DNA from: a virus
DNA length: 64,000 nt
Strand: one strand, 5' to 3'
Virus genome (UHGV): UHGV-2031204
In this document: positions 14,889 to 57,351 of the stretch, one piece after another
Layout of the letters: the number at the start of each line of letters is the position of its first letter
Position numbering within the stretch: position 1 is the first letter of the stretch
The notes under the pieces: model-generated
Told to the model about the DNA's origin: nothing
The model's input: the letters and a program-made list of their open reading frames with translations, nothing else
Databases searched by the model: none
Program-made: the position numbers and the translations under genes

Positions 14889-16946
14889 TTAGACCTCCGT
14901 ACTGTTGCGACGATAAACTTTGATCGTCGTGTTGAACTGCGACAACAGTACACCGCCTTCAGCTTTAATGTCCAGCGTGATAGAGTAGCCATTGGCTTTA
15001 TCGTCCGCTGTCATATACGCACTCGGGGTAATGTCGGCAATATTATCCAGGCGACCTTCCAAACGCTCGGTGATTTTGTTTTCAATCATTTTCGCGCGTT
15101 CGTCGTCCGTCATACGGCTTTCACCGGACATATCTGCCCAAACCTGATCACTGACACGATAAACGTAAGTCAGGATAAAGTTAAACAGTGCATTGTTCAG
15201 CACTGAACGTTCTTCGCTATAGATGGACTGGATAGCTGGGATGAACAAACGATAGTAGTCGCGGGAACGTGCGGTAACCAGAGACACATCCCAGTCGGAT
15301 GCGTAAATCTCGTTACCTTTCCACGGCATACTCAAATCGTACAGATCTTCGATGATCGTCTCTTCACCACGGCTGAAACGATACGCCGGTTTTGCACGTC
15401 CTTCACCGGAACCGAGATACTTCGAGAAGAAGTTCGCAATGCTATAACACATCGGAACCGGTTTCTTGTAGCTCGAGTTACGGATGAATGCAGACTGGCC
15501 AGTAATCATCCCACGGCACGCCGGGGTACCGTAATAGGACGACTCAGGCACGGACGTAATCATTTCGATCAGCGCTGTCTTCACGTTCTCTTCGGTTTGT
15601 AAGTCATTACGACCTTCGTTATAAACGTGAGTACAGAGTGTCAAGAACGTGTTACGAGAACGGCCAATGAAATTGGTCAGCACTTTCTTGGTATCCATGC
15701 TAAAACCGGAGTCCCAGAAGCAGCCTAACGAATATTTCAGTTCGTTATCGTAACGGACTTTACCGCCGTCCGGGAACAGGCTCATCTCACGACGCACGAG
15801 TTTGTCGTAAGCATCGTTACCCATCGTCCCGTCACTACCGCCCTGCAGATAGTGAATATTAGAAGCAGAAAAGACAACTTTACCCACTTCATCAGATGGG
15901 CTAACTTGCAGACCATCGTACATTTGACCGGTTAAATCCAGACCGCCGAAGATATCGACCATATACGGATCGGTAATCGCTGGTTTCGCATTCTGAATTT
16001 TAGACTGTGCCAGTTTCAGAACAGTTTCCAGGTTTTCACGGTAAATGTAGAACTCTTCGAAAGGACCGTAGTCCGGCAGACCGCCGATGTCTGGCATCGT
16101 CTGACGATAGGCATCTGGAACAACGACTTCGAAGTCCAGTTGAGTAGCCATCGGCTGATAGTATGCATCGGGCTTGAAGCTAACATTGATGCTGCTAAGA
16201 CCTTTAATGGTCTTCCAAATTACCGGCGATGTAACCCCTGCTAAGGTTTCAAACCATTGCAGTGCGTACATACGTCCACCTACGTTGGTCTGATAAGCAG
16301 ACGCGATAGATGGGCTGGATTTTTCGTTCAGCGGAACCAGTTTAAAACCGAAACCGTTGACATCAGCACCCGCATACGGGCCTTTAATGTCGAAGATCGG
16401 ATAAAGCTTTGATTTCGCGCTGGTGGTTTCGTCGGTCATTGTCCCTTCAGTAACCACACCTTTTTTCAGGGTGCTTACATCTTCGACAACTTGCAGACGG
16501 AAAACCACTTTCAAGCCATCAACGTCTTCTTTCTTCTTCGGCTTACCGTTAGTTTCATACTGGATAATGCCGTTCACACGCTCGTATGAAGGAACTTTGG
16601 TTTCGAGGACGTCAGCCACCAGACGGACAGCTGCGACTTTCGCATCGTCCGGCACCAGACGCTGATACATACACTCGTTACCATTGGCATTAAACATCGC
16701 CTGGAAGGGTGTGTTGAACGTCGCGTAATCGCCACGCAGGTCGAACAAATCACGACCAAGCAGAGACAATGCATTATCCCCGGATAACGGGAACGCCTCG
16801 TCGTCTACCCCGCGTGATGCAAAGGTGAAGATCAGCGGCTTATGAATCGGATCACCCGTGGGGGTCCGGACAAGCTCAGGGACAGAGTTATCCTGCCACC
16901 CTTGCTTGTTATTCAATGGCGCGCCGTTTCGTGGAATAAAACTCAT
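14889..16946 (-). CDS. hypothetical large protein, probable virion structural component (sheath or capsid class; unresolved)
   Basis: 685-aa minus-strand ORF co-oriented and coupled with 14010..14885; size fits myovirus sheath or major capsid proteins; no diagnostic motif seen. Confidence 0.65.
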   Translation of the reverse strand: MSFIPRNGAPLNNKQGWQDNSVPELVRTPTGDPIHKPLIFTFASRGVDDEAFPLSGDNALSLLGRDLFDLRGDYATFNTPFQAMFNANGNECMYQRLVPDDAKVAAVRLVADVLETKVPSYERVNGIIQYETNGKPKKKEDVDGLKVVFRLQVVEDVSTLKKGVVTEGTMTDETTSAKSKLYPIFDIKGPYAGADVNGFGFKLVPLNEKSSPSIASAYQTNVGGRMYALQWFETLAGVTSPVIWKTIKGLSSINVSFKPDAYYQPMATQLDFEVVVPDAYRQTMPDIGGLPDYGPFEEFYIYRENLETVLKLAQSKIQNAKPAITDPYMVDIFGGLDLTGQMYDGLQVSPSDEVGKVVFSASNIHYLQGGSDGTMGNDAYDKLVRREMSLFPDGGKVRYDNELKYSLGCFWDSGFSMDTKKVLTNFIGRSRNTFLTLCTHVYNEGRNDLQTEENVKTALIEMITSVPESSYYGTPACRGMITGQSAFIRNSSYKKPVPMCYSIANFFSKYLGSGEGRAKPAYRFSRGEETIIEDLYDLSMPWKGNEIYASDWDVSLVTARSRDYYRLFIPAIQSIYSEERSVLNNALFNFILTYVYRVSDQVWADMSGESRMTDDERAKMIENKITERLEGRLDNIADITPSAYMTADDKANGYSITLDIKAEGGVLLSQFNTTIKVYRRNSTEV

Positions 16947-27156: not shown

Positions 27157-27659
27157 CCCAAAATCAAAAAACGCGATGAGAGCGATTCTAACGCATTTTT
27201 CTTCCAGGTGGTACGTTCGTACCCCTTACCCACGTTTATCTCTCCAGAGAGCTTCCTACGAAGAATTTGAGGGTGTTTTGGTTGTGGGTTTTGAATTTAT
27301 TTTCACTCAACGCCATGAAACCGCGATTTTGTCGTTCGTGCTGTCACGCCAACCCCTATCCCTGGGTGGGACGAAAACCCACCCCATCGTAAAACGCTCT
27401 AAAACGCTTTTTGACGCAAAAATCTTCTCAAGGGGTACACTTGGGTACCCGAACCCCGTTTAATTCGTTACAGCTCGATTGAGAGCGTCTGAGGGGCATT
27501 CCCCTCGACCAGTTCCACCCCACCCTCGGGTCGGCGAACCGGCCGCCGCGACGATCAAAAAAACATTCACGCTTCGCGTACTAGCGGATCAGCTGGATTG
27601 ATCAACTTACTGAATCTTCACACACTGAAGATTCAGGTTGAGTAGTTCTCTAGCTTTGG

Positions 27660-27940
27660 TTTTTTGATCTTTTAAAATTTTTAATACTCTTCGAGAGACT
27701 TAGTGTCTCTCGAATCGATCTTAAATTTTTAACTCTTTCAAAAATCTGATCTCAAGATCTCTTCCTTATACGCGTGTGCGCACGCACACGTATAGTATAA
27801 TATATTTATTTATAAATATATTATTCCTTTAGGATCAAAATAATAATACCTTTAGGTATTATTTAATTATATATTTTAATATATATTATATATAAATATA
27901 TATAAAACGCGCGCGATCCTTATTATGAGATCTGATCTCG
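27660..27940. other. candidate replication origin or DNA-unwinding element: AT-rich core with palindromes, flanked by a GATC cluster
   Basis: Eight GATC sites between 27666 and 27937; ~115-bp almost pure A/T core with palindrome AATAATACCTTTAGGTATTATT; no credible ORF. Confidence 0.3.
27767..27794. repeat. alternating pyrimidine-purine tract (Z-DNA-prone)
   Basis: TATACGCGTGTGCGCACGCACACGTATA at the edge of the AT-rich core; a second CGCGCGCG tract at 27908..27915. Confidence 0.8.
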
Positions 27941-28802
27941 CTATGACCCCCCTGAGGGGGTAGGGATCGGTGAGCGGTATTTTCCAGAAAAAACCGAAAA
28001 TCGTACCCGGGGTAATTCGCCAGGGTAAAATCCCCACCTGGGGGATCGGGTAGGGGTCTACCCCGAACACCTGACCGAGGGGTGTAAAACCCATTCCCCT
28101 TTTTCGAACGTTAAAACCCTATGGTATGTTCGGAGGATTTGCGTGGGATGATTTACAAATCCAACCACGAAGATTTTTCGGAGTTCAGGAGTTTACTGCT
28201 CACAGCTCAAACACGATTTCTGTCTGCGAAGATTCAGCAGAGCTCGAAGCCCCCTGACCGGATGTTGGTTTGGGGGTTGTTTTTTCGAGTGCATGGAATT
28301 TATTTCGCCGTGTACTGGGAAAAACAAAACGTTCAGCCTAACACTGGAGTTTGTTTTACTATGGGGTTTGAAAATCGATTTGCCAATCGAACTTACCCCG
28401 AGGGATTTTTGGAATCCCCAGAGTTCAGGTGCTCGGTACCGTTTCCCCGACTTACGAGTGTTGGGGAGCCCGCGCTATCAGTGACGCGTGGACCACATGA
28501 GAAAATCCGAGGGAACCGTGGCAGCCTCTGGGAGCGACGTTGGCGAAAGGTCCGTAGAACTTACCTGCGGGCAGCCGACGGTGGGATACGCTCCCAGAGG
28601 TGCGGCCAGAATGCGAATTACGACGTTGCGTCGAATGACCCTGCTCCAGGTAGCGCTGGCAGTGTGATGTCCTCTAGCTTGACGGCTCGCAAAGACGAGA
28701 GGGGTGCGTACTCCCGTTGAGAAACGCCGGTACGCAGCTGAATTATTTTTTTTTACAGCGTTTCCTGTTGGTGTGACACAAACCACGGCAGGAGATTTTA
28801 AT
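27940..28802 (+). other. hairpin-dense non-coding segment (candidate structured RNA or array of protein-binding palindromes)
   Basis: Stacked inverted repeats: CCCCCTGAGGGGG, AAAACAAA/TTTGTTTT, GGGATTTTTGGAATCCC, and a perfect 12-bp repeat CCTCTGGGAGCG/CGCTCCCAGAGG (28525..28536 and 28589..28600); only SD-less, Arg-rich ORFs. Confidence 0.3.
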
Positions 28803-40584: not shown

Positions 40585-41646
40585 TTAATTTTCTAATGCC
40601 TGATATAATGGTAAAATTAACTCGTGTCGATAGTAATTTCTAGCCGACCGTGTAAGTTTTTCCAATATCTTCGCATCTTCGAATCTGGCTATACGCACCA
40701 TTAAATTGGATTTGTATTTGCTCATACTCGAGTTGTCGAACTGTAAGCAGAACAACGCCCAATACCAGTTCACGATGTTTCGATGCCAACTACCCTGAAT
40801 GGTTGAGCCTGGGTCTTTAAAAAGGATGCGGTCTACCGCAGTGGTAGGGTGTGCCGGATCATCAAAGAACTGTGGAATGTGTGCCATGACCACACCAGGT
40901 AAAGGTTTACCTGCACGAAGTGCTTTACACACTTGCGTTGCGTGTTTAATTGAAAGTTCACGTAAAGGCGGTGTAGGGACAACACGAAGTGGTGTTTCGG
41001 GTTCGACTTCTTTACCTGTTGCGACAGCGCGATGAATATTTAAAAATGCGATATTCATGTAGCTGGGTAGCATACGGTAAATGATGTGTCGCTGCGCGTA
41101 AACTACACGGTTAATCGGTTCGGATTGCGTTCGGTAATATTGTTCTGCAAGAACGTATTGCCATAGCAGTGCAACCAGATTAATTTCAATAATACTGATG
41201 CCACGGGGTTTGCCGTTCCCGAGACTCCAGTTAAGATTCGTGTACTCGTGATAAAGATAAACTGCAGGTGTGTAGTCACGAAAAGACAGTTCAGGATCAA
41301 TAGGACGTGCGACGAGTGAAATAATCTCATCTTGCCCTTCGATAAAGATCCCATTGAAAACTTGACCATACTCCCCCACAGAAGTTAGGTGTAGTGCATT
41401 ACCGATATCGGAAAGTTTGCGTCGACATGCCCACTCGATCTCTTCGTAGCTGGGTTCACCCGCATATCCGATAGCCGCTAAGATTTTGAGTACCAGATGG
41501 CCTGAAACAACACGGGTTTGAATGGACTCTAAATAGTTGCGAATGCGCTGATTATTATTTTTTACGGCACTGACCAATTGTATAGCGGAAGGGTCTTCGA
41601 ATTTACCCTTTATGGCTGCTTGGTTTAACTCGGCTTGACTGAACAT
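40585..41646 (-). CDS. hypothetical protein
   Basis: 353-aa minus-strand ORF, divergent from the 41855 gene across a region holding two promoter-like motifs. Confidence 0.7.
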   Translation of the reverse strand: MFSQAELNQAAIKGKFEDPSAIQLVSAVKNNNQRIRNYLESIQTRVVSGHLVLKILAAIGYAGEPSYEEIEWACRRKLSDIGNALHLTSVGEYGQVFNGIFIEGQDEIISLVARPIDPELSFRDYTPAVYLYHEYTNLNWSLGNGKPRGISIIEINLVALLWQYVLAEQYYRTQSEPINRVVYAQRHIIYRMLPSYMNIAFLNIHRAVATGKEVEPETPLRVVPTPPLRELSIKHATQVCKALRAGKPLPGVVMAHIPQFFDDPAHPTTAVDRILFKDPGSTIQGSWHRNIVNWYWALFCLQFDNSSMSKYKSNLMVRIARFEDAKILEKLTRSARNYYRHELILPLYQALEN

Positions 41647-41696
41647 GACTTACTCCTTGGGGTTACACATAGGAAACGGTCACAGTCTCACTCACA

Positions 41697-41731
41697 TTGA
41701 AAAATATCTGAGAAAGATATTATCTATGTGA
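41697..41731 (+). promoter_or_regulatory. conserved promoter-like element, extended copy 1 of 2
   Basis: TTGAAAAATATCTGAGAAAGATATTATCTATGTGA in divergent intergenic region. Confidence 0.55.
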
Positions 41732-41776: not shown

Positions 41777-41811
41777 TTCTAAAATATCTTAGCTAGATAT
41801 TATCTACGTGA
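41777..41811 (+). promoter_or_regulatory. conserved promoter-like element, extended copy 2 of 2
   Basis: TTCTAAAATATCTTAGCTAGATATTATCTACGTGA, 43 nt upstream of ATG 41855. Confidence 0.55.
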
Positions 41812-41854
41812 ACCAACACTACAATTGTATTAAACCTTATAAGGATTAAGTAAA

Positions 41855-43702
41855 ATGGCTAAAGAGTTTATTGACAATCAAAACGACGTTGTGACTGGTG
41901 CTGCTGGTTCCGCTGCAGATCCAATTCCGTCTTTCGGTGGCGCGGGAGCTGCTACTGTGGATAATACCAATGCGGCCAACGCTTTTGGTGGGATGTCTAA
42001 AAACATCTCTACTTTCGATAAAGCTTTCGGATACATGTCTTTCGTGTCCACTGCTTCTCAGTTCACCAGCCTGATTGAGAAGATGGCGGAGAAGAATACA
42101 TACCTGCGTAACTTCCGTTGGGGTGTTATTGACGGCATCAACTCTGAAATGGGTTCTGCTGCATACGTGGCTGGTCCGTCTGGCGATAACCATAACGAAT
42201 GGCTCTACGGCATCCTGTTCTTTGAACATGGCCAGTCCATCCGTTTCTACGAAATCAACGGTAAAGAAAACTACTACACCCTGGCGCAGCTGTTCAGCCA
42301 AGAAGGTGTGATGAACAACATCACTAACCAGATTGCAACTCAGCACAACCTGCCAAGCGTACAGTTCATGGTAATGAACTGCGTACCGGAACTGGGTAAA
42401 ACCATGAACGAAGAATGGGCTAACCAGCTCATGGGCCAGATTGCACTGGGTATCTTCGGTCGTCATTCCGGCTACCTGGGCTACCTGAAAATGACCCGTT
42501 CTGATCGCTTCACCGCGCAAGTCAGCGTAGTTGAAGAAGGTTCTGTAACTGATGTTAACGGTTCTGCACAACGTGCTGACCTGATGGTTGTGGTTGACCA
42601 TACTCGCACCGGCAACAACGATAATAACCCGACGCTGTTCTCTTCTGAACGCCTCCAGAATTATCCGAGCGTTGCAGGTGTTGGTTACATCAACCTCCGC
42701 CATAAAGGTAAACCTCAGACCCTGACTAACGGTACTCAGGACCTGCGTCAGCTGGAAGCCGAAGTGGTTGTTTCCCTGATGGATTCTCAGTCCTCTGGGG
42801 CAATGGCACCTATCGAGCGTCAGCTGATTGAACTGGCCGCGTTCGCACAAATCGCCACTATCGGTGGCTGGCGTGAACGTTTCATGCAGTCGCTGAACAA
42901 AACCGATCGCCGCTTCTCCCGCGTTCTGGAGTATGTAGAATGGGGCAGCGAAAAACCTGACCTGAGCAAAATCGACGGTAACCGTGAAGTTATCGAGAAA
43001 TGCCTGGACACCTTCGCTAACCCGACTGCGGCCCTGGTGGTGAACCATCGTGCAGGTAACGGTATCGGTGGTCTGTCTACTCTCCTGAGCGAAATCGGGA
43101 TGGGTAACACCAACGCACTGTACACCCTGTTCAATATCCTGGATAACATGGCCAGCAACGGCGCGACTAAGTTCAGCACTCGCTTCAAAGCACTGCTGGG
43201 CAATGTCACCAACTTCGAGTGCAAACACGTTGTTATTGCCGGTTGCCCGACCATCTCTGGCCAGTATTTCAGCAACAGCCAGAAACGCAGCTTCCAGGAT
43301 ATGGACTTGGTTTCCGCTCTGACTAAAGTGGGTGATAACCAACGCGATGCGATCGACTACATCAGTGCACAGTCCTACTCTCACCGCTATCTGAATGCGC
43401 GTGACCAGCGTCTGTACCTGCTGAAAATGGCTGCGTCCATGTTCGGTAGCAAACAGCCGCAGGTAACGGGTGAAGCGTCTGACCTGGCGATCAATCCGCT
43501 GTTTGGTAAAGCACTGGTGGAATACATTACTGAAAACTGCAACTTCCAGGTGAATGGTGTTACCGCAGCGAACAGCCTCACTCACTCTGTGTTTGTTAAC
43601 ACGGGTAATGAGAACTTCGCGCTGTCTGGTAGCGGTCCTAACGCATTTGGTAGCGATTTCGGTATGTCCTTCGCTGCAACTGACTGGCGTCCGACTTTCT
43701 AA
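41855..43702 (+). CDS. highly expressed protein; candidate chimallin-like phage-nucleus shell protein (alternative: another abundant major protein)
   Basis: 615 aa; markedly host-optimal codon usage (CTG, CGT, GGT, AAC, TTC, ATC) unlike neighbours; two promoter-like motifs upstream; strongest terminator in window downstream; Gly/Ala-rich flexible N- and C-termini; no alignment possible. Confidence 0.35.
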   Translation: MAKEFIDNQNDVVTGAAGSAADPIPSFGGAGAATVDNTNAANAFGGMSKNISTFDKAFGYMSFVSTASQFTSLIEKMAEKNTYLRNFRWGVIDGINSEMGSAAYVAGPSGDNHNEWLYGILFFEHGQSIRFYEINGKENYYTLAQLFSQEGVMNNITNQIATQHNLPSVQFMVMNCVPELGKTMNEEWANQLMGQIALGIFGRHSGYLGYLKMTRSDRFTAQVSVVEEGSVTDVNGSAQRADLMVVVDHTRTGNNDNNPTLFSSERLQNYPSVAGVGYINLRHKGKPQTLTNGTQDLRQLEAEVVVSLMDSQSSGAMAPIERQLIELAAFAQIATIGGWRERFMQSLNKTDRRFSRVLEYVEWGSEKPDLSKIDGNREVIEKCLDTFANPTAALVVNHRAGNGIGGLSTLLSEIGMGNTNALYTLFNILDNMASNGATKFSTRFKALLGNVTNFECKHVVIAGCPTISGQYFSNSQKRSFQDMDLVSALTKVGDNQRDAIDYISAQSYSHRYLNARDQRLYLLKMAASMFGSKQPQVTGEASDLAINPLFGKALVEYITENCNFQVNGVTAANSLTHSVFVNTGNENFALSGSGPNAFGSDFGMSFAATDWRPTF

Positions 43703-43731
43703 TAAGTTGGTAAGTAGTAAGCAGTAGTTGA

Positions 43732-43774
43732 GGGACAGGGGAAAACCCCCTGTCCCTTCCCTCTCTTTTTTTGT
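43732..43774 (+). terminator. strong intrinsic terminator after the codon-optimised 615-aa gene
   Basis: GGGACAGGGGGAAAACCCCCTGTCCC hairpin followed by TTCCCTCTCTTTTTTTG. Confidence 0.85.
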
Positions 43775-43786
43775 TGAGGATTCGGC

Positions 43787-45394
43787 GTGGAACATAAACT
43801 AGAATATTACGGGATTTCGGGGCGACTAATTAGTCACGACAAGATGTTACGTGACTGTATACAAGAAGCGGAGGAAAAAGGCTACAAACCACCGATTATT
43901 ATCAATGACGTTGCTGCAACGATGGATACCATCGAAGCGTCGGAGATGATTAACCAAATACTCCAAAACCGAATCGTTGATGAAACACTCAACTCGGCTC
44001 CTATTTGCAGTCTGACCTGCGAATCACCTATTACCCATCGTTATAATCTTGGGCTACGTTGCCCACATTGCGGACATGTTGTTTCTGAACATCGGATTAC
44101 GTCCGATGTCTGGTTACGCGCCCCCGATGAGATGGGTAACTTTATCAATCCACGTTTTTGGTCTCTCTTTAATGCCTTCTTTGGCTCTAAGCTGAAAAAA
44201 TTTAATCGTAACAAAGTGACGGTAGAGCGCGGGTCTGATTTACTGCTGTGGCTAATCGATCCGTACTACCATCCAGAAAAGGACGAAGGAACACGTGCTC
44301 GCGTGGTGAAAAGAATACTCGGCGAACATGGCTTCGAACGGGGAATTCGAAACTTTATCGACCACCATCGAACCGTCTTTAATATCCTTACGTCCCCGGA
44401 AGCTTGGAAGGAGATTTATCCGCCAACGAAAAATAACCGTTATGAGAGTGAGCGCGTACGCTTAGAATGGCGTGAGTTCTTTCAGGAACAATCGTTCTCA
44501 TTCTTTCCAAGACACCTTCCGATTATTTCATCAAAACTGATCGTTACGGAGGAACGTCGACAAGGTATTTTTATCGATCCGGTTTATACCAGCGCTATCG
44601 ACGCAGTAAAAAATGTGGCGTTGTTGTACACGAATGCACGTCGTATCGAACCACGATTTATTATTCGTCGCGCAATCAAAGCGAATCGACAGCTTGCGTA
44701 TTTCTATATTGACCATCGTCAGGAAGTGATGGAAGGTAAACCTGGGTTCTATCGGGCAAAACTCGGGTCAACACACGTACCGTGGGGCGGACGTGTGACT
44801 ATCTCTCCTATCTCTGAACCTCACGATGCGTTGAAAGTTATTGCGCCTTGGCGTTGGTTGGTTCCGTTGGCGAGTGTTCACATCGAGAACAAGTTAGGTC
44901 GTCGTGATTATACACCTCGACAATGTGAGCGCATTATTGCATTTGCGGCAATGCAGTATGTACCGCTGGTACATGAAATTATTAATGAGTTGATTAAAGA
45001 ATCCCCCGGCGGATTCGGCTTAATGTTGGAAGTTCTGCGTAACCCAACATTGGTTCAACTTTCTATTCAGACATTGTTCATCTCAGCGGTACTGACAGAT
45101 GTAACACAATGTTCTCTGCGTATTTCTGATCGTGTCATCAAAGCGCCTAACGCTGATTTCGATGGCGACCAGTTACAATGCAGATTGGCAATCGACCAGA
45201 TTGAAATGGAACTGGGCATGGCTTATCGCCCAGACAACGGGTTTATGTCAAGCACGAATGTGGACGAGGTTTCGAGTTGTATGATTCTCCATAACGAGAA
45301 TATCAGCAACATAAACAGTTTCTTCCAGGATACTGAAGAGGACTTGGAAGCCGGTATCGCGCTTGACTCTGAATTATTAAAATTGGCGGGGTAA
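43787..45394 (+). CDS. multisubunit RNA polymerase beta-prime subunit, N-terminal module
   Basis: Canonical APNADFDGDQLQ catalytic motif near the C-terminus; Cys cluster CSLTCE...CPHCGH (zinc-binding-like); GTG start. Confidence 0.85.
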   Translation: MEHKLEYYGISGRLISHDKMLRDCIQEAEEKGYKPPIIINDVAATMDTIEASEMINQILQNRIVDETLNSAPICSLTCESPITHRYNLGLRCPHCGHVVSEHRITSDVWLRAPDEMGNFINPRFWSLFNAFFGSKLKKFNRNKVTVERGSDLLLWLIDPYYHPEKDEGTRARVVKRILGEHGFERGIRNFIDHHRTVFNILTSPEAWKEIYPPTKNNRYESERVRLEWREFFQEQSFSFFPRHLPIISSKLIVTEERRQGIFIDPVYTSAIDAVKNVALLYTNARRIEPRFIIRRAIKANRQLAYFYIDHRQEVMEGKPGFYRAKLGSTHVPWGGRVTISPISEPHDALKVIAPWRWLVPLASVHIENKLGRRDYTPRQCERIIAFAAMQYVPLVHEIINELIKESPGGFGLMLEVLRNPTLVQLSIQTLFISAVLTDVTQCSLRISDRVIKAPNADFDGDQLQCRLAIDQIEMELGMAYRPDNGFMSSTNVDEVSSCMILHNENISNINSFFQDTEEDLEAGIALDSELLKLAG

Positions 45395-49143: not shown

Positions 49144-49788
49144 ATGGTCAATAAAAACTTCCTTAAAGAGAAATGGCTTTACCCGCAGACTGAGCCGGAT
49201 CAACAGGGCCGTACTCGTAAACTGGGCATTGAATTGAACGAGTTCAATGGTGATGTGGAACTGATGAAATTCCACTATTCCTTTGGTAAAGGCGAAGGTC
49301 TTTATTTCACCGCAGGCTATACTGTCTGTGTTGATATCTTTGAAACCCTGCGTACGGTGATGCAGAAACCCGAAAAAGTTGTTTTCAAATGGGAAGATAC
49401 AAAAGGTAAGAAGGCACCGGTTAGCTTACACGTAGGTCGTGATGAAAATCTGACACCGTTCTTTGCACTGAGCGGTGAGATCCCAGGGGTTGGTGCGCGT
49501 CAGAAGAAATTCTATTTCACCTATCCGAAAGGTTATCGTGTTTTCCGTAATGGACAACTGGTCTCCGATCTGGAACTGGCAGAGCGTCAGCTACGCGCGT
49601 TCCTGAAAAATGCAGATGTATTCCTGGAAGATTTCCGTGACAACTACAAACCGCGTGAGTTTAATAATGCGGCTGGTGGTAGTTACGGTCGCGGCGGTTA
49701 CAATAACGGCGGCAACGGCGGCGGTTATAACAACCAATCTGCCGCAAAAGCCCCAACACCAACTAACGATTTTGACGATATTATCTAA
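49144..49788 (+). CDS. single-stranded-DNA-binding-protein-like protein (Gly/Tyr/Asn-rich linker plus acidic tip)
   Basis: C-terminus GGSYGRGGYNNGGNGGGYNNQ...PTNDFDDII resembles the SSB glycine-rich linker and acidic DFDDDIPF tip; host-optimal codon usage; N-terminal fold not assessable. Confidence 0.45.
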   Translation: MVNKNFLKEKWLYPQTEPDQQGRTRKLGIELNEFNGDVELMKFHYSFGKGEGLYFTAGYTVCVDIFETLRTVMQKPEKVVFKWEDTKGKKAPVSLHVGRDENLTPFFALSGEIPGVGARQKKFYFTYPKGYRVFRNGQLVSDLELAERQLRAFLKNADVFLEDFRDNYKPREFNNAAGGSYGRGGYNNGGNGGGYNNQSAAKAPTPTNDFDDII

Positions 49789-49808: not shown

Positions 49809-49837
49809 AGCCCCAGGATATCCTGGGGCTCTTTATC
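49809..49837 (+). terminator. intrinsic terminator candidate after the SSB-like gene
   Basis: AGCCCCAGGATATCCTGGGGCT hairpin followed by CTTTATC. Confidence 0.6.
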
Positions 49838-49860
49838 GTGTATGTGTGTAGAATACAGTC

Positions 49861-49893
49861 GAAGTTATCTGAGATAGATTTTATCTTAGTGGA
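49861..49893 (+). promoter_or_regulatory. conserved promoter-like element
   Basis: GAAGTTATCTGAGATAGATTTTATCTTAGTGGA, 28 nt upstream of ATG 49922. Confidence 0.5.
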
Positions 49894-49921
49894 CGACTAT
49901 GTTATTCCTGGAGATTTTAAA

Positions 49922-51550
49922 ATGCGCATTGAAAAGAATCGTGACCGTTTAGTGATAAAGTACGGCGAAAAAGAGGTCGCGTTTAATGGTTTCCGAAATG
50001 GACGTAAAGACGTGAATGTGCCAGACGTACGCGATAGTTTCGGACAGATCGTAACGCACGATAAAATTATGTTCATGGAAATCGAGCGTTATTGGTCAAC
50101 TTTAACACCCGAAGAGAAAAGCGAACTGTTTTCAGTTTACGAAGAATTAGAGTTGTTAGCTAATGAACCCCCAGAAGTTATTCGTGAACACGTCCCCACG
50201 CTCGTCGCGAGAATTGCTAAATTTCATCACGCAGATAGATTCCGCCAGCTTTATCCACACGGTTCGGTGTGGATTCCTCAAAACGTCCACGAAACGTACG
50301 AAGAGATGTCGTCGAATTATCCAAAAGAGATGACGTATATCGTACAAGATTATTACGAATTGGTGATTTTGTCTTTGATGACAAAACCGTTTATTCCCGT
50401 ATTCTTGATTTTGGACGCTTTTCCTGCAACACGTGCTTCTGTTGAGTCGAAGCGCAAAAGTGTTTATAACCTGACCTACTGCATGGAACTGTTGTCCGAT
50501 ACCGAGATTGCTACACTGCCAGCCATTACAAAGTTGCGTGAGTTTTTAGTGTCGGTGATTTCGAAAGTTCAGGACGGGGGGAGTAAAGGACCCAATACTG
50601 CAAACCTTACCGTCCTGGCATCTATCTGTGGCTACGGTACGGATATGGTAGAGGAATACATCATAGCGTTCGCTGTTATCCGATTAATTGCGATGAAGTT
50701 AATCGGTGCCGAACTACCACCAGGTACGATGGTTGAAAACAACATCGTGGCGGGGATGTATTTCAATATTCGACAAGAAATTGAAACGGGCTTCGCGGGA
50801 AAAATTTCCGGTCAAAACGTGATGCTAAAAGCGAATCCTGAGAAAATCATGTTCAACGGCGAGAAGGGGAAAACTTCGTCGATTGACCTGGTTCAAGCTC
50901 GGACTAAAGCACCAATGAAGGAATTCGTTCGTACTCAAGAATTCTTTAATGACTATCGTCGTGCGGTGCGTGCTTTGAATCTCGATATTGCTCCCGCTGA
51001 TGTGAAAGTGTTGATAGATTCCATCAACATTAACCATCAATATCCTTTCTACGAACTCTACGAATGGTTGGTGGCGGCAGTGATGCACCGATTTGCAGAT
51101 CGTCGTACATACAAGGAAATCGACGCAGAAGCGTTTAAGAATGCGATGGGTATATCCCAAGCCGTTTACATCTATTACGGAATGGCTGAGATTGCACAGT
51201 TGTTAAGTTGTGAAATGATCCGGGCACCGCTAAATGGCGGGTATCCCATCGAGCCAATCGATAATGAGATTAAAATAAAAACGGATAGATATTATCCACA
51301 AGCATACCGTAAGCATCGTAATACTTACGAACAATCAACATTGAAGGATTCTCTCAGCTTGTTGGTTCGTGAACATATCGCGCCGTTCAACTTCAATCTC
51401 AGGGCAACACCGGAAGCAGCCAGAATGTTACGGTGTGGGACAGTGATGTTGGACTATTCACCTCATCCGCGACTTCAGAACATGTTAGCAGAATTTCTGT
51501 TAATTCAAAACAGAAAGAAATGCGAAGAAGTAGCATGGTTTAATCAATAA
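49922..51550 (+). CDS. hypothetical protein (early-promoter-motif gene)
   Basis: Start taken at ATG 49922 after GGAG (ORF track starts at 49838 inside the terminator/promoter region); 542 aa. Confidence 0.65.
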   Translation: MRIEKNRDRLVIKYGEKEVAFNGFRNGRKDVNVPDVRDSFGQIVTHDKIMFMEIERYWSTLTPEEKSELFSVYEELELLANEPPEVIREHVPTLVARIAKFHHADRFRQLYPHGSVWIPQNVHETYEEMSSNYPKEMTYIVQDYYELVILSLMTKPFIPVFLILDAFPATRASVESKRKSVYNLTYCMELLSDTEIATLPAITKLREFLVSVISKVQDGGSKGPNTANLTVLASICGYGTDMVEEYIIAFAVIRLIAMKLIGAELPPGTMVENNIVAGMYFNIRQEIETGFAGKISGQNVMLKANPEKIMFNGEKGKTSSIDLVQARTKAPMKEFVRTQEFFNDYRRAVRALNLDIAPADVKVLIDSININHQYPFYELYEWLVAAVMHRFADRRTYKEIDAEAFKNAMGISQAVYIYYGMAEIAQLLSCEMIRAPLNGGYPIEPIDNEIKIKTDRYYPQAYRKHRNTYEQSTLKDSLSLLVREHIAPFNFNLRATPEAARMLRCGTVMLDYSPHPRLQNMLAEFLLIQNRKKCEEVAWFNQ

Positions 51551-51580: not shown

Positions 51581-53287
51581 ATGGCAATGAAACTTTTGAA
51601 ACTACAAATGTATCCAGTGTACGAAATCCCAGAGCAGATTCGTCGTCGCATTGGGTTCTTTGAATCGCAGCACGCTTTGGATGAGTTAGTGGATGTGGTT
51701 GCAGAACACGGTGATAAAGCAACAGGTTCTCGGGCTTATCAAGAAGCCTTGGGGCAGATTGTGGGTTTCGACAACACCCCAACTGGCATTGAACGTCCAT
51801 TCATTAACGTGAGTGATAACGAATCGCAACCAATCCATTTTGCGTATAATTCTCGCGATACTGGTGTGTATAACTTCGTGGCGATTATTGTTTCGAACTC
51901 GTTAAATGACACACGGACTCAAGAAACACGTTATGTTGTTTCCGGGTATACGTCCCAGGCAGAACGATCCATGTTTAATCACCTGCCGGATGACATGGTT
52001 CTGTATATCAACGAAATATACGGGTTACAATGTACGTATATCACCGATGCGTTTGGTGGACGTCGTATCAACCCGGATTCCTTCCGTTTGATAGACAACT
52101 ATGTGTTGTCCAAGACATTAACCGCAGACAGTTATGTAGAGCACACCATTGACGTTATTTCTACCGCGAAAGCAGCTGATATGGTGCGTAAAGTGGTGAA
52201 AGCTGGTGAGCAGATTGAGCTGGATAACAACACTGTTATCTCTGCTAATTGCCAGCGTGCACCACAGTTGATGTCTAGTCAATTAACACGACCAGAATCT
52301 TTCGTGACAGCTATCTCCAATTCCTTCATTAATACCATGGGGATTGAAACGGAGTTGAGTGCAGTGGACAGTTTCTTCGCAGGAGATCATTCTCTTGGGG
52401 TAGAATCTGAACTTAGCCAGATCGGGGTGATGCGTAATTTCAATAGTTACGAATTGGTGAAGGCTTTTAGAACCGCCATATCCAACGCCACGTCCGATAT
52501 GACTAGCGGTTGGAACGTTGCGAACCGTGCAGCATTCAAACTGTGCGACCTGCGTAACGCGGTGATTAATCCCGAAGACGTAGATGCTGCAATTGCGCAC
52601 TCACTGGCTGTCGCAGCCCGTCGCGGTTTTGGTGAAATTGAACGCACCGATGATTGGGTAGGACGTAACAACTATTCTACTCAGGGTTCGTTGGTGGCAT
52701 TTGATTTAGCCATGTTACTGGGGCCTGTGGTCACTCGTAACCTTATCGGCGAAGTGACTTTCTTCTACGATAACCGTATGGCGGATATTGCAACACCTCC
52801 TCTGCTGCAAGTGTCAAAACACAACGTTGGGGCATTAACTGAAGACGGATTACCGGATGTGTTAGCACGTCGCTTCTTAAGTGACTTACAAGGCGTATTC
52901 TTGCAAGTGACTAAACACAACCGTATTCGTTGTAAGATGACCGTAACGTGTATCGTTGGGGTGGTTTCACGTATTGAAATCGAAATCGATGGTGAGCTGC
53001 CTGAGTATTATACTCATGCGTCGTTCATGAAAGCACGTCTGCATTGTGGTACAACGACTGACCTTCAGTACACGAACCAGTTAGCTGCAGAAACAGCGCA
53101 GCTGATGAACAAAGTGGAAGAAGGGTACCAAGAATTCAACCGTGGTCAGAACCGTTCGAATATCCTGTCGAATATTCCAACTGCCCCTGTGTCTGCACCT
53201 ACGAGCCTGGGTAGCTTCGGTAGCTTTGGTGGTGGCGATATGTCAACCTCTGCGCCAGTGTCTGGCTTTGGTGCATTCGGCGAGTAA
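51581..53287 (+). CDS. hypothetical protein with Gly/Phe/Ser-rich C-terminal tail
   Basis: CCTAAAGGAG leader; 568 aa; C-terminus SLGSFGSFGGGDMSTSAPVSGFGAFGE. Confidence 0.7.
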   Translation: MAMKLLKLQMYPVYEIPEQIRRRIGFFESQHALDELVDVVAEHGDKATGSRAYQEALGQIVGFDNTPTGIERPFINVSDNESQPIHFAYNSRDTGVYNFVAIIVSNSLNDTRTQETRYVVSGYTSQAERSMFNHLPDDMVLYINEIYGLQCTYITDAFGGRRINPDSFRLIDNYVLSKTLTADSYVEHTIDVISTAKAADMVRKVVKAGEQIELDNNTVISANCQRAPQLMSSQLTRPESFVTAISNSFINTMGIETELSAVDSFFAGDHSLGVESELSQIGVMRNFNSYELVKAFRTAISNATSDMTSGWNVANRAAFKLCDLRNAVINPEDVDAAIAHSLAVAARRGFGEIERTDDWVGRNNYSTQGSLVAFDLAMLLGPVVTRNLIGEVTFFYDNRMADIATPPLLQVSKHNVGALTEDGLPDVLARRFLSDLQGVFLQVTKHNRIRCKMTVTCIVGVVSRIEIEIDGELPEYYTHASFMKARLHCGTTTDLQYTNQLAAETAQLMNKVEEGYQEFNRGQNRSNILSNIPTAPVSAPTSLGSFGSFGGGDMSTSAPVSGFGAFGE

Positions 53288-55113: not shown

Positions 55114-57351
55114 ATGAAAACGCCAGTAGAGCTAATGAGCAGTGTGGCTGACCGTGAGATTAATATCACCGAAGTATCAGGTGCAAGGGCATCGATGGTA
55201 GGCAACCATATGAAGTCTGCGGTCCCTATCGACAATCCTGAACCATCGCCACATTTTACAGGGGCAGATATAAACTACCACGATTTTCTGTTCAATGACG
55301 TTGTAGAAGATCCCGGTAGCATCTGCCACTATATGACCAAAGACGGTCGTCAGCGCCGCGCGACGTTTACACGTTATGGTCGTCGTGGGGATTCTAAAGC
55401 GTTGGAACATGCTATCTTCTTCCGCCGTGCAGAAATGAAGGGCGGTAAAACCATGATAGATGTGCTGGAGATTAACTTCTATACTAACCACGACAACATC
55501 TTCTCATCTGAGAAACGTGAGTCGATGAAACTGCGTAGTATTTTACGTGGCGAAACCGATCAGTTGGAAAAGGATGAAATCCTTACAACGATGTCGTGTA
55601 TGGTGGAAGGCGAGTACGCCGATAGCGTCGTGTTACCAACCGTTACGATTTCGCATCCTGATATCATCGAGGATTCTTACACCATCTCTGAGTACGCCGC
55701 CCAAAAACTCCACGGTTATGGTTTGAAAATCGTTGAAAAGACGCTACGTGAAGACGAGTTTTTACTGGATACTTACGGTTATATCGATCCGAACGGTAAT
55801 CGCGTCCCACGGTATTTCCCGGATGTGGGGGAGGCTATTCGTGACGATGGGTTGGTCATTGCATCGCGTCGTTTCGATGAGCTTTACGGTGCAATTGATG
55901 CGTCGCTTGGGGAAACCCAACACGTCTCTCCGTTCTTTGATAGTTGCGAATATGTGGATGCCGATCCCGTCCATTATAAAGCACGTCTTGCAGGCGACAA
56001 AGAACTGATGGAACGTAGCGGTACACGTATCGTCGATATCCAGGTGTGGCGTGATGAAACGTCTTGCGCGAATGGTGCTAACAATATTTCTTGTACCGAA
56101 GAGAACAAACGAGAACTGGATAAATACGCATTAGCATTGAAAGACTATTACAATGCCATCGTACGATTCTATTTCTCAATGTCCCGTGACAAAAATATTA
56201 TCTGGTCGCCGAAAGCGTGCGTGTTGTTGGAAAAAGCGTTCGCTTCTGAAACATACGAGGTCTATCACGAGTTTCGTGAAGAGATACGCGTGGTGATTGA
56301 TGAAGCAATTCGTCGTGGTGAATACGGTAAAGAAAATGTCAGTCAGCAGATTCTTTCTAAGTTGACCTCGCCAGTACAACGTGGACTCAGCGATCCCATC
56401 AACACGTATACCATTCGTATTGCTGTTCGTTATCCGATCCCGGTAACGGTGTCGTCTAAGATTACCGACCGCTCGGGTACGAAAGGGATTGTTGGGCGTG
56501 TATTGCCCGTTGAGCAGATGCCGATTAACGAATTCGGTGAACGTGTTCACGTTTTACGTTCGATGAACGCTGTAATTCGTCGCTCGACTTATGCAGCATT
56601 ATTCCACATGTATTGGTCAGCTGCGTCTGAACAGTTGAAAATGCGTCTTAAACCATTGCTGGATGAAGGACGTATCAGCGAGAGCTGGGAAATCCTGATG
56701 GATTATCTATCACGCTATAATCCAGAATGGGCCAATACACTACAGGCAACGCATCCTACGGAGGATTTACAACGCGAACTTTTCAAAGAGATTTACGATT
56801 TTACAATCCGTATTTACTTACCACATGAACTTGACGACACGCCAGTCGATATCAGTGAACGGTTGGGTGAATTTAAACCGCGTAAATCCAAACTCCTGAT
56901 TACTAATTTCGATGGTAAACAGGAATGGACAAAAAATGAGTTTTACGTAGGTGGTGTGGAAACATTACGTCTGGATAAAACAGGTCGTGAGTTTTCCAGC
57001 ATCTCGTCAATGTATCTGAATTATCTGGGTACGATAGATGCGTCTAACCAAGGCCGTGGTTCGTATCCGATAAACTATAAAACGCTAAAATGGGCTGGTC
57101 CTTCGGAAGAACGACTGTTAGCGGGTTATGGTCCAGGTAACTACGAAGAAGTTCACGACAGGGCAAATAACCCTGCGGTGCATCGTGAGATTTTAGTAGG
57201 GCTTTATCGATCTCAAACCCCGTCTAATCCGGGTCCACTGGTAGACCGGAATAAATTCCCGTTAGGGGATTCACAGATTGACAGGATGATGAAAAACATC
57301 CACAGCTGTGAAGGGTTTGAATTGGTGAAAATGAAAAGGGGCGATGAATAA
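55114..57351 (+). CDS. multisubunit RNA polymerase beta subunit, C-terminal module
   Basis: DRSGTKGIVGRVLPVEQMPINEFGERVHVLRSMNAV aligns with beta [41 protein letters not shown]; downstream GRGSY...LLAGYGPG resembles RSTGSYS...EAYGAA; CCTAAAGGAG leader and promoter-like motif. Confidence 0.8.
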   Translation: MKTPVELMSSVADREINITEVSGARASMVGNHMKSAVPIDNPEPSPHFTGADINYHDFLFNDVVEDPGSICHYMTKDGRQRRATFTRYGRRGDSKALEHAIFFRRAEMKGGKTMIDVLEINFYTNHDNIFSSEKRESMKLRSILRGETDQLEKDEILTTMSCMVEGEYADSVVLPTVTISHPDIIEDSYTISEYAAQKLHGYGLKIVEKTLREDEFLLDTYGYIDPNGNRVPRYFPDVGEAIRDDGLVIASRRFDELYGAIDASLGETQHVSPFFDSCEYVDADPVHYKARLAGDKELMERSGTRIVDIQVWRDETSCANGANNISCTEENKRELDKYALALKDYYNAIVRFYFSMSRDKNIIWSPKACVLLEKAFASETYEVYHEFREEIRVVIDEAIRRGEYGKENVSQQILSKLTSPVQRGLSDPINTYTIRIAVRYPIPVTVSSKITDRSGTKGIVGRVLPVEQMPINEFGERVHVLRSMNAVIRRSTYAALFHMYWSAASEQLKMRLKPLLDEGRISESWEILMDYLSRYNPEWANTLQATHPTEDLQRELFKEIYDFTIRIYLPHELDDTPVDISERLGEFKPRKSKLLITNFDGKQEWTKNEFYVGGVETLRLDKTGREFSSISSMYLNYLGTIDASNQGRGSYPINYKTLKWAGPSEERLLAGYGPGNYEEVHDRANNPAVHREILVGLYRSQTPSNPGPLVDRNKFPLGDSQIDRMMKNIHSCEGFELVKMKRGDE

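Follow-up and report, generated by a model that had tools for sequence, protein, structure and literature searches.

ChmA (chimallin) is the main protein of the phage-nucleus shell in jumbo phages of the Chimalliviridae. The solved chimallins are those of phages 201phi2-1 (gp105; 7SQQ-7SQS and 8IGG), Goslar (gp189; 7SQT-7SQV), phiPA3 (gp53, or PhuN; 8FNE) and phiKZ (gp54; PF25677), and the 201phi2-1 protein is laid out with an N-tail (residues 1-47), an N-terminal segment (NTS, 48-61) and two C-terminal segments, CTS1 (590-611) and CTS2 (622-631) (PMC9365700). The ChmA of the SPN3US/Asesino clade has already been identified and validated as well: GFP-tagged gp039 of Asesino makes a ring around the DAPI-bright phage DNA (PMC11724907), and SPN3US YP_009153316.1 was placed among the diverged homologues of chimallin, with 10% identity to 201phi2-1 gp105 (Laughlin et al. 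2022), and listed as ChmA (Enustun et al. 2023). The latter is gp244 in RefSeq and SPN3US_0022 (the original gp22) in earlier work, both names denoting the same coding sequence (CDS). Tetragonal protein sheets seen in SPN3US lysates were later attributed to chimallin, and a 2026 review counts Asesino and SPN3US among the phages with a demonstrated nucleus. Here, these systems are compared with a gene for a 615-amino-acid protein in the UHGV virus genome UHGV-2031204, of which one strand of 64,000 nucleotides (the window) was analysed. The gene, called chmA below, very probably encodes the ChmA of an uncultured Chimalliviridae jumbo phage of the PhuZ-less SPN3US/Asesino clade.

With this protein a known family gains a new, divergent member, and the result leaves what is currently understood of the phage nucleus unchanged. 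It does give a function to a gene whose close relatives are all 'hypothetical protein' in public records, marks the source of the window as a nucleus-forming chimallivirus, and provides another sequence from the most divergent chimallin clade, one without an experimental structure, which helps to define the residues and tail motifs that are essential for shell assembly.

Fold, orthology and homology of the shell protein

The open reading frame (ORF) is present exactly as a sequence-only reading of the window had given it, and the chimallin-like nucleus-shell protein proposed there is supported by fold, by orthology to the validated ChmA of Asesino and SPN3US, by synteny with phiKZ gp54-gp55 and by transitive profile homology, as well as by conserved elements upstream and downstream of the gene. 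An AlphaFold model was built from a 14-sequence clade alignment (predicted template modelling score 0.68) and compared with the PDB by Foldseek, and all of the top nine matches were chimallin/PhuN structures (E-value = 1e-16 to 8e-20; TM-score 0.55-0.68), the first match to anything else having an E-value of only 0.17. All matches in BFVD were full-length proteins of known chimalliviruses. Residues 65-572 are confidently modelled as a two-domain core, with an alpha/beta N-terminal and a GNAT-like C-terminal domain, which as modelled superimposes on the solved chimallins.

This comparison refutes the alternative of a major structural protein of the virion, whether a capsid protein with the HK97 fold or a tail sheath, a possibility that the sequence-only reading had kept. 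The size of the product, its strongly biased codons and the strength of the expression signals would fit such a protein, but nothing else does: no capsid or sheath fold is found among the PDB or BFVD matches, the tail sheath has a gene of its own apart from chmA (14889-16946, minus strand), and the orthologue is undetected in purified wild-type SPN3US virions. Its probability is negligible. The GNAT-like domain, in turn, might belong to an active GNAT acetyltransferase or a toxin-like enzyme instead of a shell protein. That is extremely unlikely, as no GNAT family of Pfam matches the protein even at E-values up to 10, the published chimallin structures are themselves without acetyltransferase active-site residues (PMC9365700), and the product is 615 residues long, with an extra domain and tails of the lattice type.

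The solved chimallins and the window protein are only 13-16% identical in structural alignments and their tail motifs differ in sequence. Common to them are a similar length, the succession of N-tail, NTS, core and C-tail with two conserved segments, a G-x-x-R-(A/S)-D motif, and a place just upstream of a gp55-type gene for a non-virion RNA polymerase (nvRNAP) subunit. Six residues besides M1 are invariant across 27 diverse sequences (R240, G285, R322, G469, D484 and G539), and in the solved chimallins it is the arginine of PIR(S/A)D that aligns with R240. The loop HRAGNGxGGLS (residues 398-408; 43046-43078), which lies between a strand (388-399) and a helix (407-415), is invariant in the clade, its R399 and G401 aligning with the R-x-G of the phiPA3 and 201phi2-1 chimallins.

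Flexible, Gly/Ala-rich termini had been claimed for the protein, and this holds in part. Both ends are predicted to be disordered (predicted local distance difference test, pLDDT, below 50 for residues 1-63 and 573-601), and the first 64 residues contain 31% Gly+Ala versus 16% in the core, whereas the last 43 residues are rich in Gly, Ser, Asn and Phe. Both extensions bear motifs (FDxAFG in the N-terminal one, two in the C-tail) that are conserved to about the same degree as the core, in parallel with the 201phi2-1 layout. The N-tail is variable (mean top-residue frequency 0.40 versus 0.63-0.71 in the core) and has as its counterpart in 201phi2-1 chimallin an N-tail (1-47) that is dispensable (PMC9365700), and the candidate NTS, in which D55, A57 and F58 are nearly invariant, matches the 201phi2-1 NTS in position. 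At the other end two motifs are conserved, (N)SLFxNNGGExFxLSGxG (about 576-594) and GSDFG(L/M) (about 599-604), and residues 573-596, though disordered, match the core in conservation (0.73-0.75). The triplet G584-N-E586, considered as a prohead-protease site on the strength of the cleavage of phiKZ gp54 (PMC9365700), was rejected because the SPN3US protease is reported to have the motif A-X-E, with which it disagrees; no conserved A-X-E was seen in the C-tail when the alignment was inspected by eye, no motif search having been made.

The nearest orthologues that have been studied, Asesino gp039 and SPN3US gp244, are of the same length class (617-618 aa) and are 51-53% identical to the window protein over about 91% of its length. 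Shared with the window are a divergent phrog_3938 gene upstream, the nvRNAP beta-prime gene downstream, twin upstream elements, a terminator, and the conserved motifs of the N- and C-tails; about half of the residues differ, and the N-tail (1-47) is unrelated in sequence. Their clade is reported in the literature to be without recognisable ChmB and PhuZ, the window itself not having been searched for either. Besides homology to a virion protein, the sequence-only reading had named two findings that would speak against a shell protein, namely presence only in virion proteomes and lack of a nucleus-like compartment. Neither applies to these relatives: infected cells contain abundant SPN3US gp22, whereas purified wild-type virions and DNA-full heads yielded no identification of it (PMC7411985), and the compartment has been demonstrated in both phages.

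The same SPN3US work is the source of another explanation, in which the protein would fill procapsids as a scaffold or core component of the prohead and be lost when these mature. Such a role was at one time suggested for gp22 after its co-purification with protease-mutant proheads; in gradient-purified preparations of these its abundance equalled that of the major capsid protein, while mature heads had none (PMC7411985), and PHIKZ054 of phiKZ has likewise been labelled 'predicted scaffold protein' (PMC8244752). However, little or no gp22 was seen in mottled-capsid preparations, and the large tetragonal sheets in the same SPN3US lysates could co-sediment with proheads. In addition, the modelled protein is globular, with two alpha/beta domains that superimpose on chimallin, and is not elongated and helical; chmA lies beside an nvRNAP gene in a replication/transcription block and not among head genes; and the Asesino orthologue rings DNA in vivo. 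We consider a scaffold very unlikely.

The genome around chmA is that of a chimallivirus. Gene order in the window follows that of phiKZ gp54-gp75, with gp55-gp75 collinear with the genes at 43.8-61.2 kb, and the window encodes subunits of two multisubunit RNA polymerases, the virion RNA polymerase (vRNAP) and the nvRNAP, together with a prohead protease, a terminase and a divergent family-B DNA polymerase. As in other members of the family, chmA stands upstream of the gp55-type nvRNAP subunit gene. The chmA region is about 69% identical in nucleotide sequence to Erskinevirus phages, the nearest isolates.

In databases, the protein is poorly recognised. A Pfam scan gave nothing meaningful for it or for its close homologues, and in PHROGs it belongs to phrog_8316, to which no function is assigned. 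A tblastn search matched 62 phage records, all at less than 60% identity; the best named matches, Asesino gp39 (ANZ48052.1; 52.7%) and SPN3US ACQ60_gp244 (YP_009153316.1; 51%), are annotated as hypothetical. No match in the phage collection exceeds 60% identity, and the exact protein occurs otherwise only in metagenome contigs.

Several points weigh against identification as ChmA. Searches of PDB sequences by phmmer with the protein, and by hmmsearch with the profile of the 14-sequence clade alignment, found no chimallin; BLASTP to phiKZ gp54 (E-value = 1.3) and hhalign with the clade profile (E-value = 0.11) were non-significant; and PF25677 (Chimallin_Phikzvirus) gave no match even at E-values up to 10, its gathering threshold not being reached. 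The docking roles proposed for the NTS and C-tail segments are argued from conservation and disorder, the codon index used below takes E. coli weights as a host proxy, and the assignment of the promoters, the timing of expression and the leakiness of the terminator are argued by analogy.

Homology to characterised chimallins is detectable, but transitively only, through broadened profiles. Distant relatives were recruited by searching exhaustively with the clade profile in HMMER, and the broadened profile built with these matched phiPA3 PhuN (8fne; E-value = 3.3e-15) and 201phi2-1 chimallin (7sqq; E-value = 2.7e-6). The comparison with ChmA that the sequence-only reading had suggested failed with direct BLASTP and succeeded by hhalign of the broadened profile to phiKZ gp54 (97.5%, E-value = 9e-12). 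Because one of the recruits, P0038, is itself a member of PF25677, the bridge was repeated without the three weakest recruits, and it held (E-value = 5e-11; hhalign 96% over residues 75-563). Two other distant recruits, P0032 and P0037, gave no phmmer matches in the PDB. PF25677 is centred on Phikzvirus sequences, with 1122 bits for phiKZ gp54 and 35 bits for the distant bridge protein P0038, and three close homologues of the window protein carry a precomputed PF25677.3 match.

Twin upstream elements, codon usage and the terminator

Two tandem copies of a promoter-like element had been noticed before chmA, and both were found in our analysis. They are 80 nt apart and fit the consensus AAAATATCTkAGnnAGATATTATCTAyGTGA, which has exactly these two matches in the window and none expected in shuffles. 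The core AGATATTATC occurs six times, always on the plus strand (0.11 expected), mostly 37-275 nt upstream of plus-strand genes, including the nvRNAP beta gene at 55114, and is absent from the block of virion genes at 0-25.9 kb. A scan with a position weight matrix added one variant site elsewhere, and no gene of the window other than chmA has two copies. Both copies also precede the orthologous genes of a metagenomic relative with 71% identity, of SPN3US (Seoulvirus), of Asesino (Erskinevirus) and of ChrisDB (Machinavirus), even though the proteins are only 45-52% identical; the second copy is more degenerate in SPN3US and the Erwinia phages than in the window phage. The element is conserved in five relatives (L002, L003, SPN3US, Asesino and ChrisDB).

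Early promoters of the vRNAP in jumbo phages that encode RNA polymerases carry, near -10, an AT-rich core some 10 nt long (PMC7598289). The window elements agree with this in having an AT-rich core of about that length, over-represented, strand-specific and upstream of genes with early functions. The early promoter consensus of phage AR9 is AAATATATATTAT-N6-G (PMC5312081), and since ATATTAT-N6-G of the window elements fits its 3' half, transcription start sites (TSSs) are predicted at 41730 and 41810, the latter 45 nt before the ATG of chmA. By this analogy we infer that the twin elements are vRNAP early promoters. The flanks differ, the window element having the form AAAATAw-N9-AGATATTATC, and AR9 is not a chimallivirus and has uracil in its DNA. 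In phiKZ, two TSSs with different motifs, one early and one middle, have been mapped for PHIKZ054 (PMC8244752). Two promoters before the shell gene, followed by a hairpin and T-tract before the RNA polymerase gene, are thus common to phiKZ and the window; the phiKZ motifs, however, differ in class, whereas the two elements of the window are near-identical copies of one motif, predicted from the DNA.

Three other readings of the elements were tried and rejected. The inverted repeat AATATCT/AGATATT is unsupported as an operator or hairpin, its left arm being largely the A-rich half (AAAATAw) of the general motif and the repeat not being kept in the Erwinia phages. A TATG within the distal element, as an overlapping late promoter, is not kept in Asesino or ChrisDB. 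Of a supposed second tandem pair at 49778/49878, the site at 49778 overlaps the stop codon of the preceding gene and has a terminator hairpin behind it, which leaves one variant element for the gene downstream.

The gene was also said to have the most host-optimal codon usage in the window, and with a codon adaptation index (CAI) of 0.613 it does rank first among about 56 genes (next 0.477, median about 0.28). The index was calculated with the Sharp-Li values for highly expressed E. coli genes and is a host proxy only; relatives of the window phage infect Enterobacterales. CTG makes up 85% of the leucine codons of chmA, and TTA, CTA, TCA, ATA, AGA and AGG are all absent. The second-highest CAI (0.477) is that of the plus-strand gene 49144-49788, whose product is 64% identical to SPN3US YP_009153323.1, a protein listed as a homologue of the nuclear-associated phiPA3 gp61 and phiKZ gp67 (PMC10643120). 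With this product nucleus-associated by homology, the two most codon-optimised genes of the window both encode nucleus-associated proteins.

The terminator behind chmA, described before as the strongest in the window, comes first by a narrow margin (-25.5 kcal/mol; others -24.7, -23.8 and -22.4). It is kept in five relatives, in which the stem sequences differ and the pairing is preserved. The gene for an RNA polymerase subunit that was said to follow chmA directly does so, and is without a promoter element of its own. Its product matches phrog_2987 (E-value = 2e-163) and, by BLASTP, phiKZ gp55 (E-value = 2e-40); the orthologue Asesino gp040 has been named nvRNAP beta-prime 1 (PMC11724907).

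By analogy with the phages mentioned above, the twin elements and the terminator together suggest a module for high-dosage early expression, conserved across three genera. Soon after injection, the virion RNA polymerase would transcribe chmA from the two tandem early-type promoters with their ATATTAT core, and the extreme codon optimisation would lead to very high translation by host ribosomes. The strong and presumably leaky terminator would act as an attenuator, keeping the downstream nvRNAP much lower and the ratio of ChmA to polymerase high. ChmA would form tetramers through its N-terminal segment and insert its C-terminal segments into neighbouring subunits, yielding a flexible square lattice, which in turn would enclose the replicating phage DNA and keep out host nucleases and CRISPR effectors.

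More tentatively, and with the balance of probability against it, the chmA of this clade may combine such a conserved dosage module (twin vRNAP promoters, codon optimisation and attenuating terminator) with tails, SLFxNNGGExFxLSG and GSDFG, that dock in a way unlike that of the phiKZ type. If so, the distinct docking could produce the tetragonal lattice seen in SPN3US lysates, and could also explain the massive co-purification of the orthologue with unprocessed proheads, through docking to capsids from which release would need the prohead protease. The minor new points of this work are that twin promoter elements and terminator are conserved together in three genera, that the clade has tail motifs of its own, and that public annotations and Pfam still fail to detect these proteins. 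The predicted twin promoters and the terminator, both conserved, also provide concrete elements for the study of promoter recognition by the vRNAP of enterobacterial chimalliviruses.

Coordinates, the antisense frame and neighbouring genes

The features of the locus are collected in Table 1. The Shine-Dalgarno sequence is kept in the alignment of the relatives, and the N-terminus M-[AV]-K is common to all homologues in the alignment, indicating the same start.

Table 1. Features of the chmA locus in the window (all positions refer to the 64,000-nt stretch)
Feature	Position	Strand	Details
Conserved divergent gene, phrog_3938	40585..41646	-	353 aa; upstream neighbour of chmA in the clade
Distal 31-nt promoter-like element	41701..41731	+	AAAATATCTGAGAAAGATATTATCTATGTGA; A-rich upstream part and AGATATTATC core; predicted TSS G41730
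Proximal 31-nt promoter-like element	41781..41811	+	AAAATATCTTAGCTAGATATTATCTACGTGA; 80 nt downstream of the distal copy; predicted TSS G41810
Shine-Dalgarno AAGGA	41841..41845	+	9 nt before the chmA ATG; read from the sequence
Antisense 'shadow' ORF, not a gene	41846..43795	-	649 aa; covers chmA and is longer than the real gene
ChmA (chimallin) CDS	41855..43702	+	ATG start; 615 aa; 67 kDa; pI 5.5
Variable disordered N-tail, residues 1-47	41855..41995	+	Gly/Ala/Asn-rich; pLDDT <50
Candidate NTS, residues 48-64	41996..42046	+	Conserved FDxAFG(W/Y) motif (FDxAFG 54-59); short helix 49-57
Alpha/beta N-terminal domain, residues ~65-230	42047..42544	+	Approximate boundary
GNAT-like C-terminal domain, residues ~231-572	42545..43570	+	Invariant NG..RAD motif (R240, D242); Gly-rich loop 398-408
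Disordered C-tail, residues 573-615	43571..43699	+	Two conserved motifs, candidate CTS1 and CTS2
Intrinsic terminator	43730..43772	+	GGGACAGGGG-AAAAC-CCCCTGTCCC hairpin, G+C-rich 12-bp stem (43730-43758), then CCCTCTC and T7
nvRNAP beta-prime N-terminal subunit	43787..45394	+	Orthologue of phiKZ gp55 and Asesino gp040

The antisense ORF listed in Table 1 was passed over in the sequence-only reading, and a naive longest-ORF picker chose it over chmA. We rejected it as a gene. Its CAI (0.308) is ordinary for the window, all homology sits on the plus frame of chmA and none on the antisense frame, and, lying in the codon-aligned frame, it is stop-free because the sense codons TTA, CTA and TCA are all missing from chmA, so that it is a by-product of the codon bias. 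The equivalent frame has 0-4 stops in the relatives of the clade (it is open in SPN3US) and 38 stops in phiKZ. Naive gene callers could pick the wrong strand.

The phrog_3938 gene is always divergent and adjoins chmA in the clade (SPN3US_0021, Asesino gp38 and ChrisDB gp37), whereas phiKZ has gp54 and its upstream neighbour on one strand. Its protein has no Pfam match. Between the two start codons, CACATAGGAA at 41666-41675 is invariant in all six aligned phages; it reads TTCCTATGTG on the minus strand, where 21 nt separate the G of TATG from the downstream ATG of the phrog_3938 gene. This TATG resembles the T(-3)ATG(+1) of phiKZ late promoters, which are recognised by the nvRNAP.

Farther downstream, the ORF listed at 49838-51550 encodes an nvRNAP subunit similar to phiKZ gp68, and probably starts at the ATG at 49923, which is preceded by a GGAG ribosome-binding site; the match to PHROGs begins at residue 27. 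Before this ATG are a hairpin terminator (49810-49835) and a variant promoter-like element, GATAGATTTTATCTTAGTG (about 49873-49891). Within the 3' part of the same gene, a perfect AGATATTATC core with an A-rich upstream half is found at 51287-51296, 292 nt before the gene 51581-53287, which is the positional equivalent of phiKZ gp69 and phiPA3 gp63; this site may be an internal promoter. At 27464-28120 there is a long intergenic stretch with a tract of low complexity and extreme AT-richness (such as ATATATTATATATAAATATATATAA near 27800-27900), within which isolated ATATTAT matches occur on both strands.

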